Virus record (IMG/VR): IMGVR_UViG_3300010347_002503
Coordinates: 1-64,000 of that record
Origin: a virus
Taxonomy: Duplodnaviria; Heunggongvirae; Uroviricota; Caudoviricetes
Reading direction: 5' to 3' (one strand)
Length of the DNA: 64,000 nt
The position numbers were made by a program, and so were the translations under genes. Under the pieces are notes generated by a model that was not told the origin of the DNA, did no database searches, and saw only the letters and a program-made list of their open reading frames with translations. Positions 4,437-63,040 of this stretch are shown here, piece after piece (position 1 is the first letter of the stretch; every line of letters starts with the position of its first letter).

Positions 4437-4598
4437 ATTTTGTTTGCCTGAAAAAGTATAGTATAGACGTGAGCAAGTAAAACATAAGAACTACCCAATC
4501 CGTATGTTCCGAATAGCATACTCCTTGACGCAATCTGAAAAGATTCCCTCTTGAGCTACGGCTTACAGAAATTCGGACAGGAACAAACAAATCTCTTT

Positions 4599-4685
4599 GG
4601 GCATGTCGCATAGTGGCTATTGCACGGGACTGTAAATCCTGCGTCTTTCGGGACTTCGGAGGTTCGAGTCCTCCCATGCCCACCA
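4599..4685 (+). tRNA. tRNA-Tyr(GUA), long variable arm
   Basis: GACTGTAAATC anticodon loop; variable-arm hairpin; T-loop TTCGAGT; CCA. Confidence 0.85.
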
Positions 4686-4707
4686 CTTTAGTCAATTACA
4701 AATGAAT

Positions 4708-4783
4708 AGGCGGGGTGCTTGGGCACGGGCAGGTCTCCAAAACCAGCTACGGGATAAGGGTTCGAATCCCCCACCGCCTGCCA
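4708..4783 (+). tRNA. tRNA-Trp(CCA)? (imperfect anticodon and T stems)
   Basis: Acceptor AGGCGGG/ACCGCCT, T-loop TTCGAAT, anticodon loop CTCCAAA, CCA. Confidence 0.4.
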
Positions 4784-7024: not shown

Positions 7025-7110
7025 TGATCCGTGGTGTAATTGGTAACACGCCTGACTTTGACTCAGGAGACAGTTTGTTTATGTAGGTTCGACTCCTACC
7101 GGATCAGCCA
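7025..7110 (+). tRNA. tRNA-Gln(UUG) with an anomalous 15-nt unpaired variable region
   Basis: Perfect acceptor TGATCCG/CGGATCA, canonical D-arm, arm CCTGA-CTTTGAC-TCAGG, then AGACAGTTTGTTTAT before the T-arm GTAGG-TTCGACT-CCTAC; CCA. Confidence 0.6.
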
Positions 7111-7130
7111 TTTTTTGACTATTTATAGTC

Positions 7131-7904
7131 ATGAAACGAAAACTTGCTTGGAGACCTGATCTTCCCGATCAGCGAGATTATACCTTTTCTCAACTTACTA
7201 TTGATCAAAATATTCCTATCACCGCCTCAGTAACCTCAAGTCTTAGGTTCTGGTGTTCTTCTGTAGAGGACCAAGGAACTCTTGGAAGTTGCGTGAGTAA
7301 TGCAGTTGTTGGGCTTTATGAGTTCAATCGAAATTTCTCTGGTTTGGGAGGCTCAAACTATCGCAATTTCAGCCGTCTGTTTAACTATTACAACTCTCGG
7401 GTACTTTCAGAAAATGTCGATGAAGATTCCGGAACTTATATTCGAGATGCCATCAAAAGTGCTAAGTTGAATGGAATTTGCTATGAATTTCAATGGCCGT
7501 ATGACGTGAATGCTTGGATGAATGAACCTCCATTAGGATGCTATCGGGAAGCCATCAATCACAAAGTTAGCAAGTATTACAGAATTGAGACGTTGGATGA
7601 AATGAGGACATCTTTGGCAAATTTTCATCCGTTTGTTTTTGGTATTGCTGTTTACGAGTCTTTTCTGAGTGATGCTGTTGCTGCCACGGGTGATGTTCCC
7701 ATGCCCTCGTCAAGGGAACAAATGTTGGGTGGTCATGCAATGCTCTGCATAGGACACGATGATATTACTCGACGTTTCTTAGTTCGTAATTCATGGGGAA
7801 AAAATTGGGGAATTCCTTACGGAAATCTTGGAGGCTATTGTTGGATTCCTTACGATTACCTCACCGATAGAAATTTGAGTGACGACTTTTGGACTGCTTA
7901 TTGA
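7131..7904 (+). CDS. papain-like cysteine peptidase (family C1)
   Basis: Catalytic triad motifs Q-x4-C (DQGTLGSCVSNA), His (GGHAMLCIGHDD) and Asn-Trp (NSWGKNWG...GY). Confidence 0.8.
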   Translation: MKRKLAWRPDLPDQRDYTFSQLTIDQNIPITASVTSSLRFWCSSVEDQGTLGSCVSNAVVGLYEFNRNFSGLGGSNYRNFSRLFNYYNSRVLSENVDEDSGTYIRDAIKSAKLNGICYEFQWPYDVNAWMNEPPLGCYREAINHKVSKYYRIETLDEMRTSLANFHPFVFGIAVYESFLSDAVAATGDVPMPSSREQMLGGHAMLCIGHDDITRRFLVRNSWGKNWGIPYGNLGGYCWIPYDYLTDRNLSDDFWTAY

Positions 7905-7916
7905 TATTTATAAAAT

Positions 7917-8912
7917 ATGCGTCTTTCAGAACTGATTATACATAAAATTTCTCCAGATCATCTTTTTGAAACTTACACGCTTCCTGAAATGGCCGCTGGC
8001 GATGTAAAAGAAATCTCTCAAGAAGAATGGCAAGAGGGCATTCGGTTGGCGAAAGAACACAACGAGTCTCCAGCGATTGACCCACAAATCAAAGGGTTCT
8101 ATTACATTGATGTCACTGGAAGATATCAGGTGTATTTTACGCTATGGCGTTGGAAAGATGTTGATCCAACGGTTGCTCAATGGGTAAAGAACCCCATTTA
8201 CATGGGGAACATGACCACGAATTTTTTGACTTCGGTTAAAAAAGCATTGGAAAAAATTCCTCGAAGTGTCCGTTTTCAAATCATGACGGACAAAAATCGA
8301 GAAGGTCTCATTGGAAAGAATGTCGTTCGAAGTAATGAAGACATCAAATTTACTTTTGGAAAATACCGTGGAAAATCACTTGGAGAAGTTTACCTTGAAG
8401 ACCCTCGTTACATTATTTGGCTAGTTCAAAATCAAGATCCAAAATATGAGAATACGAAACTAGGTCAGGCATTAAGAGTATTCGCCAACATGTATTACGA
8501 GGAAGTCACCAAGCAAAATCAAGAAAAATACAAGGATGTTCAATACGTCGGTGCCATCGGAGACCAATATGAAGGGGAAATTGAGGTTTACAAGATTGAA
8601 ACTAAGGAGGGACGGTCGTTCAATCGATGGGAAAAGAATCCAACTTATACAGATGCCCGTGCAGTGGACGATAAAGGAAACAAGTTCATTATCTATAATC
8701 TTGATAAAGCATTTCCAAATCATATCATAACAAAAGGAACCAAGGTCAAAATTCGTGGAAAAATTAAAGACCAAAAGGAAATCCTTGGAATCAAATTCAA
8801 TCGAATCGGTTACGTCAAGGGTATTGATCCCGGCAATGCTCAACCAAAACATCCCGAACTTCAACTTCAATCACAGCCGGAAATTCCACACCCAGAAAAC
8901 CCAGAGTTTTAA
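7917..8912 (+). CDS. protein with DUF3820/QSregVF_b-like motif (FGKYRGKSLGEV..DPRYIIWL)
   Basis: FxFGKY+GK..EV...DP.Y..WL signature found in phage replication-associated proteins. Confidence 0.55.
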   Translation: MRLSELIIHKISPDHLFETYTLPEMAAGDVKEISQEEWQEGIRLAKEHNESPAIDPQIKGFYYIDVTGRYQVYFTLWRWKDVDPTVAQWVKNPIYMGNMTTNFLTSVKKALEKIPRSVRFQIMTDKNREGLIGKNVVRSNEDIKFTFGKYRGKSLGEVYLEDPRYIIWLVQNQDPKYENTKLGQALRVFANMYYEEVTKQNQEKYKDVQYVGAIGDQYEGEIEVYKIETKEGRSFNRWEKNPTYTDARAVDDKGNKFIIYNLDKAFPNHIITKGTKVKIRGKIKDQKEILGIKFNRIGYVKGIDPGNAQPKHPELQLQSQPEIPHPENPEF

Positions 8913-10279: not shown

Positions 10280-10314
10280 AGAGGAGTTGGGTTCAAATCC
10301 CAATATCCTCTCCA
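10280..10314 (+). ncRNA. tRNA acceptor/T-arm minihelix (top half of a tRNA only)
   Basis: AGAGGA-G-[TTGGG-TTCAAAT-CCCAA]-TA-TCCTCT-CCA; no D or anticodon arms. Confidence 0.35.
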
Positions 10315-10320
10315 CATTAT

Positions 10321-10416
10321 GGGGAGGTAGCTCAGAGGTTAGAGCGTCGAGCCAATGGTTGATTATATCTTCCAGTAACCCGAAGGTCGCAGGTTCAAAT
10401 CCTGCCCTCCCTGCCA
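10321..10416 (+). tRNA. tRNA with ~19-nt internal insertion (anticodon unresolved; possible intron or giant variable arm)
   Basis: Perfect acceptor GGGGAGG/CCTCCCT, canonical D GCTC-AGAGGTTA-GAGC and T GCAGG-TTCAAAT-CCTGC, CCA; 42 nt between D and T arms. Confidence 0.5.
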
Positions 10417-10491
10417 AATTCATGAAATCAATGACATTCATAGCATAGAAATCTCTAGCGTGATTCCGAGTGGTAACACCTATTTATAGGC

Positions 10492-10896
10492 ATGACAAAA
10501 GAAGAACTACGCCAATTGATTCAAGAAGCGATTCAGACTGCATTGAATGAAAGGCAAAATTTGGAATATTTAAGTGATGACATTCCAACTCGTACAATCA
10601 TTGGCGAAGCGTGGACTCAAATTATCCGGAAACTGGAAACTTTAATAGGAGAAGTTGAAAGTTTTAATGATTCTTTTGGATACACCATGCAGAAAATGGG
10701 AATGAAAGAAAAGCTCGCCGTTCAGTCTTACGTGGCGCAACTCCAGCAAATTGTGAAAATACTTGAGCAGCTTCATCCCGCCATCAAAATTATGACGAAA
10801 ATCGAACAATATGATGAACTGCATGAAGGTCATCCCCATGGGCGTTATGCACAGCAAGCGGGAGCAACTCCGTTTGACACGCCTCAAGATTTCTAA
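10492..10896 (+). CDS. hypothetical protein
   Basis: 134-aa ORF immediately after a CTATTTATAG motif. Confidence 0.5.
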   Translation: MTKEELRQLIQEAIQTALNERQNLEYLSDDIPTRTIIGEAWTQIIRKLETLIGEVESFNDSFGYTMQKMGMKEKLAVQSYVAQLQQIVKILEQLHPAIKIMTKIEQYDELHEGHPHGRYAQQAGATPFDTPQDF

Positions 10897-11470: not shown

Positions 11471-11509
11471 ACCGCTGTGCCAATCTAATAAAACAGCGGT
11501 ATCTTTATT
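11471..11509 (+). terminator. putative terminator hairpin
   Basis: ACCGCTGT...ACAGCGGT 8-bp stem followed by ATCTTTATT. Confidence 0.35.
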
Positions 11510-11582
11510 CCCTCTTGGTGTAATGGCAGCACAGAAGCCTTTGGAGCTTTTAGTTGGGGTTCAAATCCCTGAGAGGGAGCCA
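11509..11582 (+). tRNA. tRNA-Gln(UUG)
   Basis: Perfect acceptor TCCCTCT/AGAGGGA; D GTGT-AATGGCA-GCAC; loop CTTTGGA; TTCAAAT; CCA. Confidence 0.75.
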
Positions 11583-11583
11583 C

Positions 11584-11675
11584 GCAGCGGTAATCGGTGC
11601 GGTCTTCTAAGCCGTGGTCGTTAAACTCCGAAATTGGATTTGACCTTGTGGGTTCGAGCCCCACCCGCTGTGCCA
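11584..11675 (+). tRNA. atypical tRNA, 92 nt, probable Arg(UCU); D region ~6 nt, with a 32-nt insert before the T-arm
   Basis: Acceptor GCAGCGG/CCGCTGT, arm GCGGT-CTTCTAA-GCCGT, T GTGGG-TTCGAGC-CCCAC, CCA; same architecture as 5200-5285. Confidence 0.45.
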
Positions 11676-12326: not shown

Positions 12327-12851
12327 ATGAACCTGAAATATCCCAAAGAAATGTTGATCCCGCTTGTCAGGGGAAGCGTGAGTATATCCGACGTTATGAG
12401 AAAACTCGGCATTCGACGCTCTGGGGGAAGTCATTCTCACCTTTCCCGAAAACTGAAAGAGTATGAGATTGATACTTCCCATTTCACTGGCAAGACAGCG
12501 GCGAAAGGGAGACCTTCGCCTCGGAGAAAGCATTGGACCGAAATCTTAATTTTACGCACATCTGGAAAACGTCAACACGCCATCCAATTAAGAAGAGCGT
12601 TAATCGAGAGTGGTGTTCCATATCAATGCTCTGAATGTAGATCGGAGCCCGTATGGAGAAACAAAGAACTCCGATTTCAAGTTGACCATTTGAATAAAAA
12701 CTGGTTGGATGACAGGAGAGAAAATTTGAAGTTTCTTTGCCCGAATTGTCATTCACAAACGCCGGGATATAATGGTTCAAAAGGATATGCCGACATAATG
12801 GATTACAATCGGTATCAGCGAGAAAAGAGAAAACAAAAAATGGCACCGTAG
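12327..12851 (+). CDS. HNH endonuclease
   Basis: CxxC...H-N...CxxC core: CSEC...VDHLNKNWLDDRRENLKFLCPNCH. Confidence 0.75.
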   Translation: MNLKYPKEMLIPLVRGSVSISDVMRKLGIRRSGGSHSHLSRKLKEYEIDTSHFTGKTAAKGRPSPRRKHWTEILILRTSGKRQHAIQLRRALIESGVPYQCSECRSEPVWRNKELRFQVDHLNKNWLDDRRENLKFLCPNCHSQTPGYNGSKGYADIMDYNRYQREKRKQKMAP

Positions 12852-12926: not shown

Positions 12927-13009
12927 GGCCGTGTGGTGTTAAGCGAAATTTGGAAGAAGCGGTGGTTTCAAAAAATACCCCCTTGGAGGTTCAAATCCTC
13001 TCACGGCTA
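12927..13009 (+). tRNA. atypical tRNA (83 nt, no encoded CCA, extended D region; possible Leu-CAA-like loop TTCAAAA)
   Basis: Acceptor GGCCGTG/CACGGCT and T GGAGG-TTCAAAT-CCTCT; interior not foldable as a standard cloverleaf. Confidence 0.4.
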
Positions 13010-13533: not shown

Positions 13534-14115
13534 ATGAGTATTCGACAAAAGGCCAACAAAATCAAAAAAGAGCGTTGCCGCACGTTGATTGCGGTACTCG
13601 AAAACCCCAAAACCATTGAAAATATTGGTTCAGTCATTCGAAACGTTGATGCCCTTGGGGTGAGTAAGTTATACGTAATTGACGGCTACAAATTATTACC
13701 GGATAATTGGCAGGATATGCGTGAGCGGAGAAGCTTAAATAAAATCTCTGCTTCCGCCGTCAAATGGACTTATATCCATCCTTTCAAAACCACAGCGGAA
13801 TGTATCGAACATTTGAAAAGAAAGCATTTCTTGTCGGTAGTAACATCGCCGCACGTAAAAGGTAAAAAGAACGTTTCCCTCGATGAGGCCGATTTCACAC
13901 AGCACCATCTGGCGGTCTGGTTTGGAAACGAAAGTCATGGGATTTCCGACGAAGCCGTTCAAGCTGCGGAATTCTGTGTGAGCATTCCGATGCACGGTAT
14001 CATTGAAAGCTTCAATCTGGGTACATGCTCGGGTATTGTTCTATATGAGGTCACCAAACAGCGAAGACTTTTCCGAAAAAATAAACAGCAGTGCCGAACG
14101 GCTGTAATGGACTAA
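13534..14115 (+). CDS. SpoU/TrmH-family RNA 2'-O-ribose methyltransferase
   Basis: SPOUT motifs ENIGSVIRNVDALGV, VWFGNESHGIS and IPMHGIIESFNLGTCSGIVLYEV. Confidence 0.8.
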   Translation: MSIRQKANKIKKERCRTLIAVLENPKTIENIGSVIRNVDALGVSKLYVIDGYKLLPDNWQDMRERRSLNKISASAVKWTYIHPFKTTAECIEHLKRKHFLSVVTSPHVKGKKNVSLDEADFTQHHLAVWFGNESHGISDEAVQAAEFCVSIPMHGIIESFNLGTCSGIVLYEVTKQRRLFRKNKQQCRTAVMD

Positions 14116-14442: not shown

Positions 14443-14540
14443 ATTTCGTATGGAAAAGTATCGGAAACTATAACGTTCAAGTAACGGGTGTTTTATGATT
14501 AACGGTGCCGCTCTAACTTCGGAGGCTACTTATTCAAACT

Positions 14541-15002
14541 GTGGCCATAGGTGGATTTTTATTGACAAGTACGGTCCATTTTGCCATACTTGTTCTCTGT
14601 ATAAAAGAATCAGAAAAGAATAGTATGAGAAAGTGGATCAAACAACTGCCGGAAATGAAGAACTGCGGAGTAATAGCGGTGGCGATCATTGCGGAAGTCT
14701 CGGTTGAGGCTGCCGCTGAGGCTATAGGTAAAAAGGGGGCTACATTCACAAAAGACCTTGTCAAGGGTCTCAGAAAATTTGGATTCAAATGTCCAGACCG
14801 TTGTGTTCGAGTTAAATCAAATCAACCCCTTCCCAAATTGGCAATCGGCCATTTGTCCGACCCAAAACGAAAAAACGGCTGGCATTGGATTGTGATCGAT
14901 GGAGACAAAATCTGGGACGGTTTGTTTGGCGATCCCGATGGTAAACCGGTGTATTGGGAATCCGGGTGGAAAATCACATCGTATCTTCCTGTTACGAAAT
15001 GA
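14541..15002 (+). CDS. C39-like (papain-fold) peptidase domain protein
   Basis: Cys motif KNCGVIAVAII and His motif NGWHWIVIDG, resembling Peptidase_C39_2; N-terminal hydrophobic segment. Confidence 0.5.
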   Translation: MAIGGFLLTSTVHFAILVLCIKESEKNSMRKWIKQLPEMKNCGVIAVAIIAEVSVEAAAEAIGKKGATFTKDLVKGLRKFGFKCPDRCVRVKSNQPLPKLAIGHLSDPKRKNGWHWIVIDGDKIWDGLFGDPDGKPVYWESGWKITSYLPVTK

Positions 15003-18978: not shown

Positions 18979-19326
18979 ATGAGAAAACTATTGACCACTC
19001 TCGTTCTGGTTCTCACCATCGCCATTACTGCTTTTGGTGAAGACATTTGGTTTACTTGGGATAAAAACCCCGCCAACGAGCTTATTGGCACCTATCGATT
19101 AGAATATATCAAACTTCCAGTGATTACCAATTGGACTTTATTAAGTAACATTCCCGGTACCACTAATGTTGCTGTTGTAAAAGGTGTCCAAGGCGGTTTT
19201 ACTTACAAATTCAGAATATTTGCTCAGAATTCAAAAGGTATTGGAACCAATCTTTCCAATATCATTGAAATTCCAACTAATGCACCAACAACAGTAAGCA
19301 ATTTTAACCTTACTACGCCTCGCTAA
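18979..19326 (+). CDS. secreted FN3-like domain protein (paralog of 18491)
   Basis: Signal peptide; FTWDKNP...YRLEY; preceded by CTATTTATAG. Confidence 0.5.
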   Translation: MRKLLTTLVLVLTIAITAFGEDIWFTWDKNPANELIGTYRLEYIKLPVITNWTLLSNIPGTTNVAVVKGVQGGFTYKFRIFAQNSKGIGTNLSNIIEIPTNAPTTVSNFNLTTPR

Positions 19327-19338
19327 TGCTAATCATCT

Positions 19339-19761
19339 TTGTTCAACTACTATTCTATGGTACATGATTTACCGTTTGGTAAATTCATAGATACCATGAG
19401 AATACAGCATAAATACTTAAGAAATCGTCACTTCCGATTGAAAAATTGGAAGCGCATTCGTAATACCGAACATCCATTCGAGACTGACATGCCTTGGTTT
19501 TTCTATAATTCGACGGAATGTTACTCAGCGGAAAAACAAATTGCCAATCACTTTGAGAGGATTACCAATCATGCTCGTGGCCTAGAAAGTGGTTTTAACC
19601 ATGTAGCACTGAACTACAAAAACGCTCCTTCCGATTATCGCCGTCGTTGTAATGCACGAGATAAGGCAAAGGTTCGTGCGGCGATGCAAAAAATTAACAA
19701 TGGACAATACGAGACCGAACTTCCGGTTTTCAAACAGGATGCGGGTTGGGACTATTGGTAA
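19339..19761 (+). CDS. hypothetical protein
   Basis: 140-aa ORF. Confidence 0.45.
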   Translation: MFNYYSMVHDLPFGKFIDTMRIQHKYLRNRHFRLKNWKRIRNTEHPFETDMPWFFYNSTECYSAEKQIANHFERITNHARGLESGFNHVALNYKNAPSDYRRRCNARDKAKVRAAMQKINNGQYETELPVFKQDAGWDYW

Positions 19762-19923: not shown

Positions 19924-20002
19924 AGCAGGTTGGAGAAGTCTGGCCTATCTCGCAACGCTCATAACGTTGAGAACCTTGGTTCGAATCCAAGACCTGCAAC
20001 CA
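19924..20002 (+). tRNA. tRNA-Met(CAU) (elongator or Ile2-type; A1:A72)
   Basis: D GAGA-AGTCTGGCCTA-TCTC; arm CAACG-CTCATAA-CGTTG; TTCGAAT; CCA. Confidence 0.7.
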
Positions 20003-60236: not shown

Positions 60237-60262
60237 AATTACCAGCCATGCTATTTATAGGC

Positions 60263-63040
60263 ATGGCTTTATTATCATCATTTGGAAAAGAAGGCGTAAA
60301 ATTAGGTCTTCTTACTCGCAAAGTTGACATCGAAGATACTTCCACGACCTCGAAGTACTTTGCCGTTACCGAATTCCCCAAAATCCTCACAGCGGGGAAA
60401 AACTCATTTGCCTTTAACGGTTCTCAATTTCTTAAAGACAAATCGGAGATACAAGTTGAATGTCTAGATTCCAACAACAATTCTCTCTATCTTGAACAGG
60501 CAAAATCCCAAGAAAGTCAGTTCACCGATGCATCGAAATTCGTAGTTTCCATTCATGTTTACGATGAAACCTACAACGGTCCAGCGAAAATTATCTTGGT
60601 TGGAACTACCACAAAGGGGGAAATAGTTCGATGGATTGGAACGGTGACTATTGACAAAACACTTAACAACAATTCCAAAGTTAGGTTTGTAAATCGTCCA
60701 TCGTTAGAAGTTCGTCCTCTTCTTTATCCCGTCGTCTCACTTACTCGTGCGGCTGTAGATTACCCCCCGCCACCAGTTATTTCCCAAGCGGCTGGATATG
60801 CCGTCATCCGGAGTTATGTTAAATCGGTTACTTTGACTGGTGTAGGTGCTGGCTATACTAGCGTTAAAGTCACTGTCGATAACACTGGTACCGGAGGAAG
60901 TGGATGTCAATTAGAAGCAACGATTGCACCAGACGGTTCTATTGAATCGGTGACGGTTGTTAATGGAGGTTCTGGATATAAGAAGGCACCAAAAATAAGC
61001 ATTGGAGGAACATACACAACAAAAGCTTCGGCAATAGCCGTCCTCAAAAGCGAAGTTGTTGATGTGGTTATCACAAAACCCGGTTCTGGTTATACATTCG
61101 TTCCAGAAGTTGTATTTACTCCAGTAGGAGGTCATGGATCAGGAGCGTCGGCAACGGCTATAGTCCAAAATGGAAAGGTTATCGACGTAACGATAGATCA
61201 ACCAGATGGTGGAGGCGATGGATATACAGAAGTTCCAGCCGTATCATTTACTGTTCCAAATGCGCCGCCACCGCCTGATATGAATGTTTGGGTATCGTTC
61301 TCGGCAAGTTTTTCTTCTTATGGAGCAACCCCACCAACGGATACCAACAAGAATACTATAAACCCCAAACAAACCGATATTGACTATAGATTGGTCATTA
61401 CAAGTTCTGCATTTTCTCCATTAACTCCGGCAGATCTTGGCTCTATGACATTTCCATACAAGGTTTTCAACACCCAAATGGAAGGTCATCCAATAACTCT
61501 TCATATTACAAAAATAAAAAAACCGTATTCCAGAGAAAACATTTCGGTTAATATCACTTCATCGTTCACAATCAAAAAAGTCCTGAATAGTACTACCATA
61601 CAACTCAACGACCCATTCTATTACACCATAGGAAAAAATCAGTTCGTCGCAAATATTATTGAAGGAAGATGTTTTGCTCCATATCGGTTTATCTTATATA
61701 ATACGGCACCCGACTCAAGTCAATTTTATCAAGTTTCTCCGTCAGTAGCTCTTCCTGTAAAAGACTCCTACGCAGAAGTCATTTATAGAAACATCAAATG
61801 TTTTACTGGATTCGTAGCACGCCACAAAATCTACCGAAAAAGCTCATATTTTCCCGGCGATTTCCAGTTGGTTTCTGATGAACTTTTAACCCCTCCGGAA
61901 TTACTTTCGGATCAAGTTACATTCAATAAGTTCTATGACCGACTAGGAGTATTTTACAATCAACCCCACGTTAATAAATATTGGTTTTCCGAAACTCCCA
62001 ATTTTAAGCTTTATCATTCTACCAATCCAATAAACTCAATGCGGGTTCAAATGGACTCGTTCACATATGCCGATGGAACAAAAGGAATAATAGTTAAAAA
62101 TGATACTTTAGGTGGAGTCAATGATTCGATATACAGAGCATACAATGCTTCGGAATACGCTCGGCTTTCGGGTTCATCTTATAATTCAAACTTTATTAGC
62201 CTCAAAAAAGATGTCTTGTACGTTTTGGGGACCAACATCTCCTTAGAGAAAAACGCTTCGGAGACGGATGCAAAAGTGTCGTTTTACTTTACTAGTTCCA
62301 TTCCAAGCATTAAAAACGAAAAAACTTACGATGCCACTCTAAAAAAGTTGAAACTGGGAGAAATATCGACAAAAGATAAGGTTTCCATAAAGTATTTCAA
62401 CGACAGACAATACATCTACTTTACTCCTCAAGATGACTATTACGGAACTTTGGTGATAGTTCCTTACAAATGTTCTCCGACGCTTTCGGATATATCGCTG
62501 AAAGTGTATGCCGATTACGGGTTCTCTGGAGATTGTCAAGAGATCAGAATTCCTTTTGACGTAAAGACCGCAAACGAAGCATTTGATATTAGGTCAGAAC
62601 TCTTAGATTTGAATTCTGTGATTGTGTATTCAGAGCTCCGAACTGTTCAATCTTTTGACCCCGGTGGGGAAAGTTTAGTTGGAAAAACAAACACAAGTAA
62701 TATCAATACCAATATAACAATTGTCCAAGGGAACAATGGGGGAGGCGGGTCTGTTACCGTGACTGGAGAACCATATTTTCCAGATTTGACTCTATGTGAC
62801 ACAACAACTCGTTTCGTAGGATGGCACGCCACCACGGGGGATTCAACGACAGACGGAAAACTATGTTATACAAATGTTGCCCGACTTTTCGTAAGTTCTA
62901 GTGAATATATTCAACTTCATGAATACCAAGCTGGAGTGGAAGTAGTTGGGAAAGCCATTGCCGTGCAATATGACTTAGAAAACGGAATGGGTAGAAAAAT
63001 TTTCATCGATGCCTTCGGCACAAAAGAAATCTATCCATAA
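60263..63040 (+). CDS. structural protein with repeated GSGY..P.V Ig-like modules
   Basis: Start moved to the ATG directly after CTATTTATAG (long ORF from 60248); repeats VNGGSGYKKAPKISIGG, KPGSGYTFVPEVVF and GGDGYTEVPAVSF. Confidence 0.5.
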   Translation: MALLSSFGKEGVKLGLLTRKVDIEDTSTTSKYFAVTEFPKILTAGKNSFAFNGSQFLKDKSEIQVECLDSNNNSLYLEQAKSQESQFTDASKFVVSIHVYDETYNGPAKIILVGTTTKGEIVRWIGTVTIDKTLNNNSKVRFVNRPSLEVRPLLYPVVSLTRAAVDYPPPPVISQAAGYAVIRSYVKSVTLTGVGAGYTSVKVTVDNTGTGGSGCQLEATIAPDGSIESVTVVNGGSGYKKAPKISIGGTYTTKASAIAVLKSEVVDVVITKPGSGYTFVPEVVFTPVGGHGSGASATAIVQNGKVIDVTIDQPDGGGDGYTEVPAVSFTVPNAPPPPDMNVWVSFSASFSSYGATPPTDTNKNTINPKQTDIDYRLVITSSAFSPLTPADLGSMTFPYKVFNTQMEGHPITLHITKIKKPYSRENISVNITSSFTIKKVLNSTTIQLNDPFYYTIGKNQFVANIIEGRCFAPYRFILYNTAPDSSQFYQVSPSVALPVKDSYAEVIYRNIKCFTGFVARHKIYRKSSYFPGDFQLVSDELLTPPELLSDQVTFNKFYDRLGVFYNQPHVNKYWFSETPNFKLYHSTNPINSMRVQMDSFTYADGTKGIIVKNDTLGGVNDSIYRAYNASEYARLSGSSYNSNFISLKKDVLYVLGTNISLEKNASETDAKVSFYFTSSIPSIKNEKTYDATLKKLKLGEISTKDKVSIKYFNDRQYIYFTPQDDYYGTLVIVPYKCSPTLSDISLKVYADYGFSGDCQEIRIPFDVKTANEAFDIRSELLDLNSVIVYSELRTVQSFDPGGESLVGKTNTSNINTNITIVQGNNGGGGSVTVTGEPYFPDLTLCDTTTRFVGWHATTGDSTTDGKLCYTNVARLFVSSSEYIQLHEYQAGVEVVGKAIAVQYDLENGMGRKIFIDAFGTKEIYP

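Follow-up and report, generated by a model that had tools for sequence, protein, structure and literature searches.

The window, meaning the whole 64,000-nt stretch of DNA analysed here, is part of the genome of an uncultivated tailed phage encoding a baseplate wedge protein, gp25, a primase and PhoH, together with several homing-endonuclease-type domains (LAGLIDADG and T5orf172 domains among its ORFs). Nucleotide and protein searches of deposited phage genomes returned no relative of this phage; the DNA itself has been assembled independently in at least eight metagenome assemblies (ENA, JGI, Logan/SRA), and its source communities are activated-sludge and digester samples (ERZ795052, ERZ27257402, JGI 3300009704, 3300009664 and 3300025686). 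Around 40 tRNA genes, all on the + strand, occupy 4.2-22 kb of the window (ARAGORN, Rfam), nearly all with an encoded CCA and with small ORFs scattered between them. Within the array lie an HNH-endonuclease-like ORF (12327-12851) and a SpoU-family RNA 2′-O-methyltransferase (13534-14115), both conserved in the related phage loci L009 and L022. The motif (C)TATTTATAG stands 2-6 nt upstream of start codons at 7120-7133, 10481-10494 and 60252-60265, with looser copies preceding many ATGs between 7.9 and 20.4 kb, where a Shine-Dalgarno sequence is not visible. It is kept upstream of the gene for a 134-aa protein in L009, L019, L020 and L021, which suggests a candidate phage promoter yielding leaderless or near-leaderless mRNAs. 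A role of the tRNAs in the punctuation of mRNAs was rejected, as ORF starts do not systematically adjoin tRNA 3′ ends.

The tRNA and tRNA-like genes of the window considered below are the following.

7025-7110, + strand: tRNA-Gln(UUG) of 86 nt with a 15-nt variable region at 7068-7082 (ARAGORN; orthologue in L009).
10280-10314, + strand: acceptor/T-arm minihelix of 35 nt ending in CCA, between a tRNA-Lys gene and the next gene listed (T-arm match).
10321-10416, + strand: tRNA-shaped gene with an interrupted anticodon loop and an encoded CCA (ARAGORN; Rfam; eight identical contigs; orthologue in L009).
11584-11675, + strand: tRNA-like gene of 92 nt, called by neither ARAGORN nor Rfam (scan, fold, sequence).
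12927-13009, + strand: weak tRNA-like remnant with a good acceptor stem and T arm, aberrant D and anticodon regions and no CCA.

The initial annotation had described several tRNAs of 83-96 nt without a variable hairpin of the Leu/Ser/Tyr type; among the tRNAs of the window other than Leu, Ser and Tyr only the Gln gene (86 nt) and that at 10321-10416 (96 nt) are of this size, with Thr-UGU reaching 82 nt. The Gln gene scores 63 bits with Rfam and carries U1:A72 and G73, a normal 74-nt Gln-UUG being encoded at 11509-11582. Its length and the 15-nt segment that follows a perfect anticodon arm are as first reported, but the segment, AGACAGTTTGTTTAT (7068-7082), which had been taken to be unpaired and free of a variable hairpin, can be folded as a predicted hairpin of 4-5 A-U and G-U pairs (GACA-GUU-UGUU), the stem GACA/UGUU being kept in the L009 orthologue with a longer loop. 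The anticodon stem of that orthologue differs at most positions and still pairs (CCUGA/UCAGG as against CUUCG/CGAAG). With more than 10 nt and a predicted stem-loop the variable region is of the class II kind, without the Leu, Ser, Tyr or Sec identity of that class, and recharging by SerRS or LeuRS is not indicated because the Gln-type U1:A72 and G73 are retained. From its sequence the gene is best described as a class I tRNA with a putatively acquired, small, class II-like extra arm, in keeping with the earlier suggestion of a novel extra arm. The L009 orthologue (2106-2193) has the anticodon UUA, of ochre-suppressor type, together with U37 and no CCA, and could be either a suppressor tRNA or a decaying copy.

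For the gene at 10321-10416 ARAGORN predicts a tRNA of 96 nt, leaves its type undetermined and gives it an "anticodon" of two bases. Against the Rfam tRNA model RF00005 it scores 55 bits (E 4e-9 window-wide; gathering score 29), which is mid-range among its normal neighbours, in an alignment that covers the full model (1-71) and skips 31 nt within the anticodon arm. Direct reading gives an acceptor stem GGGGAGG/CCUCCCU (7 bp, G1.U72), U8, A9, G26, G73 and CCA, a D arm GCUC-AGAGGUUA-GAGC, a variable loop AGGUC and a T arm GCAGG-UUCAAAU-CCUGC, and the D and T arms carry the usual tertiary-contact bases, completing a cloverleaf body. The original description of a 96-nt tRNA with perfect acceptor, D and T arms and CCA therefore stands on ARAGORN, Rfam and direct reading alike, save that the distance between the D and T arms is 43 nt and not 42. 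G1.U72 was considered as a hallmark of aberrant genes and rejected, being present in 27 of the 166 tRNAs of these phages. The anticodon arm is built from the parts below.

10347-10351, + strand: 5′ strand of the anticodon stem, UCGAG (UCGGG in L009, as in E. coli tRNA-fMet), from the sequence.
10352-10355, + strand: 5′ loop flank CCAA, the same in the window and L009 and without U33 (alignment).
10356-10374, + strand: inserted hairpin UGGUUGAU-UAU-AUCUUCCA, of eight layers, two of them U.U (covariation against L009; unique in the window).
10375-10378, + strand: 3′ loop flank GUAA, the same in the window and L009 (alignment).
10379-10408, + strand: 3′ strand of the anticodon stem, followed by the variable loop, the T arm and three bases at the start of the acceptor 3′ strand, a segment identical to the corresponding region in widespread initiator tRNAs of bacteria (E. 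coli and metagenome matches).

The anticodon stem, UCGAG/CCCGA with a single A30.C40 mismatch, encloses a loop of 27 nt (28 nt in L009), CCAA-UGGUUGAU-UAU-AUCUUCCA-GUAA, which begins with CC and has neither the 7-nt form with U33 nor a readable anticodon. The insert of approximately 20 nt (20-22 nt) folds on itself as a hairpin at the centre of this loop, a symmetric 4x4 internal loop separating it from the anticodon stem, and because the hairpin splits the anticodon loop the tRNA as encoded is unable to read a codon. The sequence is identical in eight independent metagenome contigs and so is not an assembly error, although for the same reason these contigs add nothing to a comparison. Several other readings of the locus were rejected: a repeat or mobile hairpin, as the insert is unique within the window; a phage attachment site, as the two acceptor strands together form a stem and are unlike those of the initiator; and a K-turn, sarcin-ricin, UAA/GAN or tetraloop-receptor motif, none of which fits the CCAA/GUAA loop by inspection.

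Other tRNA-like elements lie nearby. The minihelix at 10280-10314 reads AGAGGA-G-UUGGG-UUCAAAU-CCCAA-UA-UCCUCU-CCA, and a diverged copy ending in ACA occupies the same place in L009 (~4579-4612). The gene at 11584-11675 has an acceptor stem GCAGCGG/CCGCUGU (7 bp, G1.U72), a perfect T arm, G73-CCA and the anticodon loop CUUCUAA (UCU); it lacks a proper D arm, has an extra arm of ~30 nt and is syntenic with a 90-nt Arg-UCU in L009. The element at 12927-13009, first reported as a tRNA without an encoded CCA, does lack CCA and does have an acceptor stem and T arm, but it is not called by ARAGORN, and its only Rfam match (14.6 bits, E 3.1, tRNA-Sec) falls below threshold; D and anticodon arms are not recognisable, and the evidence supports a degenerate tRNA-like element, not a confident tRNA. 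It is identical in L009, which is uninformative because the whole surrounding stretch is identical, and is present as a variant in L022.

The 3′ half of the 96-nt gene is that of an initiator tRNA. Its only match in E. coli is to tRNA-Met genes, at four places per genome (90.6% identity over 32 nt, gene positions 56-87), and one of these genes, compared in sequence, is the initiator tRNA-fMet. Positions 39-68 of the tRNA match a bacterial initiator, the initiator pattern being G26-UCGGG-C32 and A37-A38-CCCGA-AGGUC-G.(A/C)GG-UUCAAAU-CC.GC-C, and among the matches of a metagenome pattern scan were initiator-type 3′ parts identical to the window over 29-30 nt. In L009 the stem with the three consecutive G:C pairs 29-31:39-41 of initiators, UCGGG/CCCGA, is identical to that of E. 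coli tRNA-fMet, where the window copy has A30.C40. Other initiator marks (C1xA72, A11:U24 and CAU) are absent, with G1.U72 (G1-C72 in L009) and C11:G24 in their place, and neither the acceptor stem nor the D arm is of initiator kind, both resembling an Asp tRNA of a related phage. A contiguous CAU is likewise missing, CA and U flanking the insert on opposite sides; set against the initiator loop CUCAUAA, the loop C-CA|A-hairpin-G|UAA amounts to an insertion between A35 and U36 with loss of U33. A Trp-like or Asp-like identity, suggested by G73 and the D arm, was rejected since neither explains the loop. The only CAU tRNA called in the window, an ordinary tRNA-Met (19924-20002), is the reverse case, with A1xA72 and A11:U24 and without the GGG/CCC stem. 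The metagenome pattern scan returned mostly initiator-type tRNA 3′ parts following ...CTCG and non-tRNA sequence; group I introns were suspected in these matches and rejected, as no Rfam intron was found. Two metagenome sequences unrelated to the phage came to light, L166 (~49-122) with an initiator-type tRNA body, loop CUCGUAA and anticodon CGU, and L160 (782-840) with a 59-nt D-armless tRNA-like element bearing the same anticodon arm.

Comparison with homologous tRNAs in related phages, one of the checks proposed at the outset, was made possible by L009, which like L022-L024 was reached through the proteins neighbouring the gene. An ExoX-like protein is 62% identical between L009 and the window and the downstream 134-aa protein 72%, and a syntenic orthologue of the tRNA lies at 4675-4770 (Rfam 37 bits; ~25% diverged, 75% identity), keeping the layout and the hairpin pairing. 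Its anticodon stem, UCGGG/CCCGA, is perfect and the flanks CCAA and GUAA are unchanged at 8/8 positions. The L009 hairpin is CAGAUGAC-UAUU-GUCAUCUG, in which all eight pairs still form even though nine of the 20 columns differ from the window; three of the eight pairs carry changes on both strands that preserve pairing (U-A to C-G, G-C to A-U and U-A to C-G), and the two layers that are U.U in the window have Watson-Crick pairs here. No double change was found in the other four helices of the tRNA between the window and L009. As a neutral background the adjacent gene is 62% identical at 4-fold sites and 57% at third codon positions, and against it the 8/8 fixed flank bases, together with the three exact compensations, speak for selection acting on how the insert folds. 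Just two full sequence types underlie this, so that the covariation is limited to three pairs.

There are also possible signs of relaxation in both copies. The energy of the arm is -6.4 kcal/mol in the window, a weak hairpin, and -21.3 in L009, ViennaRNA energies not being meaningful for structures drawn with non-canonical pairs. The L009 body has A7.C66 and A52.C62 mismatches, three G.U pairs arising from transitions and no CCA, and the tRNA looks partly relaxed in each lineage. Its 75% identity falls within the 66-100% of syntenic normal tRNAs of the same two phages. A third variant is present in L020, a contig that begins inside the gene and of which only the 3′ part, CGAAGGUCGCAGGUUCGAGUCCUGCCCCCCCGACCA, is visible. 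Searches of IMG/VR with the two flanking proteins, the exact insert or an L020-type 3′ end gave nothing useful, degenerate junction patterns scanned against IMG/VR and GTDB genomes gave only chance matches after a downstream T-arm filter, a profile of the 134-aa protein found six IMG/VR loci (0/6 with tRNAs), and in L326 and L327, which are closer ExoX-neighbour contigs, normal tRNAs are numerous but a copy of the gene is absent.

Insert-bearing tRNAs are also found more widely in the clade. Relatives reached through the ExoX-like protein encode many oversized tRNAs outside the Leu, Ser and Tyr classes with hairpins in the variable arm (Asn 89-96 nt, Lys 90-93, Ile-UAU 93, Arg 84-90, Met 83-86 and Trp 86), and some have genes with longer interruptions, as follows.

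L010 7607-7757, - strand: Asn-like tRNA of 151 nt with a 77-nt anticodon-loop insert (stem GCUGA/UCAGC, flanks CUGU.../...UAA, U1:A72 and G73).
L010 14657-14775, - strand: Gln-like tRNA of 119 nt with a 46-nt anticodon-loop insert (stem AGCGA/UCGCU, U1:A72 and G73).
L328 ~7930-8072 and 14484-14607: orthologues of these Asn-like and Gln-like genes with structured inserts conserved.
L013 14748-14906 and L019 420-575: tRNA-like RNA of ~155 nt, its 5′ 28 nt and 3′ 30 nt nearly identical in these distant relatives.
L019 9504-9670: Ile-GAU-like element of 167 nt with loop UCGAUAA (C33) and a variable-region insert of ~100 nt.

In the Gln-like gene of L010 the flanks CU(UU).../...UUGAC would, minus the 46 nt, give CUUUGAC, the loop of Gln-UUG, and the insert contains a T-arm-like hairpin. 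The L328 Asn-like gene has the anticodon stem UCGCA/UGCGA, with three of five pairs changed on both sides relative to L010, and one compensated T-stem pair; the 4-bp helix closing its insert covaries (CGGA/UCCG in L010 to GGAG/CUCC in L328), and the loop flanks are identical while the interior has lost 13 nt and most of its sequence similarity. In the L328 Gln-like gene, compensation affects two acceptor pairs. These compensatory changes indicate that the insert-bearing tRNAs are selection-maintained genes of this clade and not dead ones, and the conserved flanks of cognate loops are compatible with either splicing or a structural role, flanks able to rebuild a loop being what any insertion leaves by descent. 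No small ribozyme was matched in the larger L010 inserts (Rfam, E<=1). The ~155-nt RNA ends in an acceptor strand, a T arm GCAGG-UUUAAAU-CCUGC and A-CCA, its middle being divergent and partly covarying, and the insert of the Ile-GAU-like element begins with a tandem GGUGGGUAGGGC x2. A 271-aa AlaRS-like fragment (tRNA-synt_2c; L019 8457-9272) is encoded 230 nt upstream of the latter, and another relative, L015, encodes its own tmRNA (19240-19621; Rfam 95.5 bits; tag AETIEAYDFAPEMDVVAVA).

The intron-like insertion proposed for 10321-10416 is correct as to anatomy, in that a compensatorily conserved hairpin sits in the anticodon loop, and fails as to the features of known tRNA intron classes and the presence of a canonical loop. 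Group I introns have a U before the 5′ splice site, end in G and contain a ribozyme core of ~180 nt or more. An origin of the insert as the remnant or miniature of such an intron, as in bacterial tRNA-fMet genes, is recommended by the initiator-like anticodon stem, the position in the anticodon loop and the G that stands last before UAA, and 35/36 is a documented group I site for Asn and Asp tRNAs (PMC13011429). However, with 20-22 nt as against 184-894 bp in bacterial tRNAs it is ten-fold too short and has no ribozyme core, it lies at 35/36 where the tRNA-fMet introns lie at 33/34 (PMC13011429), A and not U precedes it, and no Rfam intron model, including group I (RF00028), matched the tRNA at the gathering threshold or at E<=1. 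The insert is neither a group I nor a group II intron; group I self-splicing is effectively refuted, and descent from such an intron extremely improbable.

Archaeal and eukaryotic pre-tRNA introns are recognised through a bulge-helix-bulge or measured by a ruler mechanism and are usually found at 37/38, the archaeal-type bulge-helix-bulge consisting of two 3-nt bulges on opposite strands with a 4-bp helix between them. The insert resembles these introns in that it is short and adds a helical extension to the anticodon arm, while the mature domain stays whole. It differs in that no 3-4-3 bulge-helix-bulge was seen by inspection of the junctions, which form a 4x4 loop with a 3-2-3 pairing drawable in L009 only, and in that a ruler-type cut at 37/38 would give the anticodon AAU in one lineage and AAC in the other. 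The surroundings are moreover bacterial-looking, with an encoded CCA and bacterial-type initiator features. Single excisions that keep the stem all yield C33 or a loop of 6 or 8 nt, bar one, and this sole canonical product, CUGGUAA, arises in L009 only and takes two bases from the covarying hairpin stem, where the window has CA. With U33 missing, there is no single excision by which both lineages would obtain a canonical loop. Among ~78 window ORFs there was no splicing endonuclease, RtcB or RNA ligase, the nearest being a weak 2H-phosphoesterase match, nor was any listed for those loci of relatives that came with gene tables; such absence is weak evidence because the window covers part of the genome.

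The reading favoured here over a spliced intron and a decaying pseudogene, tentatively and with rather less than an even chance of being right, is that the gene makes a tRNA-shaped, non-decoding RNA. The transcript would be excised and matured by the tRNA maturation enzymes like its array neighbours and would fold as an L-shape with an anticodon arm longer by ~12 layers, and because of that lengthening it presumably could not pair with a codon on the ribosome. It may act through the tRNA body and the initiator-like anticodon stem, as a stable tRNA-scaffolded hairpin. A VapC-type nuclease that cuts tRNA-fMet at 38/39 exemplifies factors that bind the initiator tRNA, and possible roles would be a decoy or competitor for an initiator-tRNA-recognising factor, the partner being speculative, or an element of array processing or stability. 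In favour of this are the strong tRNA body with CCA and the lack of a 7-nt loop and of U33. The covariation of the hairpin, the fixed flanks, the lack of any known intron signature and the absence of splicing genes from the window would point the same way, and the clade keeps other genes with acceptor, T arm and CCA around aberrant middles (10280-10314, 11584-11675, the L013/L019 RNA and L019 9504-9670). Set against it are the two sequence types, the weak window hairpin, the L009 mismatches and missing CCA, the restriction of the window to part of the genome, and the conserved flanks of the Gln- and Asn-like genes of sister phages, which would rebuild a cognate loop and whose simplest reading is splicing. 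The hairpin would then be a true intervening sequence removed by a protein endonuclease and ligase, of phage or host, to give a tRNA able to decode, the route, distinct from both group I self-splicing and bulge-helix-bulge cleavage, being one that would likewise remove the 46- and 77-nt inserts of the sister phages and those of the Lak phages; this is possible, if somewhat unlikely. In its favour, the insert forms a discrete, self-folded unit within the anticodon loop, the rest of the tRNA being intact, conserved pairing is expected of structure-guided cleavage, the L010/L328 genes keep their cloverleaf through six double-compensated pairs with flanks that would restore cognate loops matching U1:A72/G73, and the inserts of all three kinds of tRNA (the 96-nt, Asn-like and Gln-like) can be placed at 35/36. 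Lak phage tRNA genes with such inserts have also been published (10.1101/356790).

Splicing is nevertheless less favoured for the gene at 10321-10416 because a U33-less product in both lineages is hard to square with selection for decoding: any excision leaves C32-C33, a state that predates the split of the window and L009, and the consistent products (CCAAUAA, CCAGUAA and the 6-nt CCAUAA) would be poor decoders. Nor is a bulge-helix-bulge available, since its 2-bp version can be drawn only for L009. The three inserts meet their anticodon arms through junctions of unlike geometry (4x4, 5x8 and 5x1), which makes a common ruler enzyme hard to see; neither the window nor the gene tables of the relatives' loci contain an endonuclease or ligase gene; and loop-rebuilding flanks are expected by descent after any insertion. 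Decay would account for a loop that is non-functional as encoded, and on this explanation insertion and U33 loss made a pseudogene whose slow erosion is tolerated in a very large, tRNA-redundant genome. The A.C anticodon-stem mismatch and two U.U hairpin layers of the window, the A7.C66, A52.C62, three transition-derived G.U pairs and lost CCA of L009, an identity (75%) only moderately above that of neutral sites (57-62%) and the degenerate tRNA-like remnants nearby (12927-13009 and the minihelix) are all in keeping with it. It is quite unlikely even so, as three exact double compensations in an eight-pair hairpin together with 8/8 flank bases are improbable by drift, the window body is well formed with CCA and scores 55 bits like its normal neighbours, the 75% identity lies within the 66-100% of syntenic functional tRNAs, and insert-bearing tRNAs in the sister lineage are under structural selection.

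The proposed non-decoding RNA has counterparts in engineered tRNA scaffolds, plant mitochondrial t-elements, mascRNA and the tRNA-like domain of tmRNA, in which the acceptor/T domain is kept, the anticodon region is replaced and the RNA does not decode. The 96-nt tRNA is like these in its intact acceptor, T and D domain and differs in the tiny size of its insert, and it gave no match to the Rfam models of tmRNA and YrlA. The Gln-UUG gene at 7025-7110 and the Asn, Lys, Ile-UAU, Arg, Met and Trp tRNAs of the relatives resemble the class II-like tRNAs of non-Leu/Ser/Tyr type known as nematode nev-tRNAs (PMC3333845) and allo-tRNAs, although the arm of Gln-UUG is short and weak, its Gln-type acceptor is kept and the genes are found in phages. 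The nearest published description is that of the Lak megaphages, whose tRNA genes are reported to contain "enigmatic introns" (Devoto et al., preprint 10.1101/356790). The likeness consists in a huge uncultivated phage with a large tRNA set and an oversized tRNA with a discrete insert that bacterial tRNA finders cannot type; the Lak inserts, whose limits were set by tRNAscan in its eukaryotic mode, recur in conserved form from sample to sample and are given as having no known mechanism (10.1101/356790). By this description the 96-nt gene, an oversized gene in the tRNA set of a huge phage with a discrete insert in an otherwise intact tRNA, is of the Lak type. It differs in that the insert is a simple hairpin of 20-22 nt in an initiator-like body without U33, the two being likened by description and not by sequence.

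Oversized phage tRNA genes with unexplained inserts are therefore already known from the Lak phages, and what is new here is the minimal 20-nt one-hairpin case, its covariation, the initiator-like tRNA without U33 and the structural selection in sister phages. A broader proposal, which must be regarded as unlikely at present, is that the huge phages of this clade, and perhaps Lak, either possess a protein-catalysed splicing of short structured inserts at 35/36 that is neither group I nor bulge-helix-bulge, or use tRNA scaffolds on purpose to house small functional RNAs, one example being a decoy of the initiator tRNA that would counter nucleases of the anticodon arm. To our knowledge the tRNA introns recognised in bacteria and in their phages are all self-splicing, and the phage anticodon-loop inserts, which are short, structured and selected, match none of the known intron classes. 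As a 96-nt RNA with a single 20-nt hairpin the tRNA at 10321-10416 is a compact test case. If such inserts are spliced, an unrecognised pathway of RNA cleavage and ligation would operate in infections by bacterial viruses; if they are not, the tRNA fold would serve phages as a vehicle for small RNAs of other kinds, in which case the tRNA sets of huge phages, with many genes now typed "undetermined" or "pseudo", would have to be recounted and reinterpreted.
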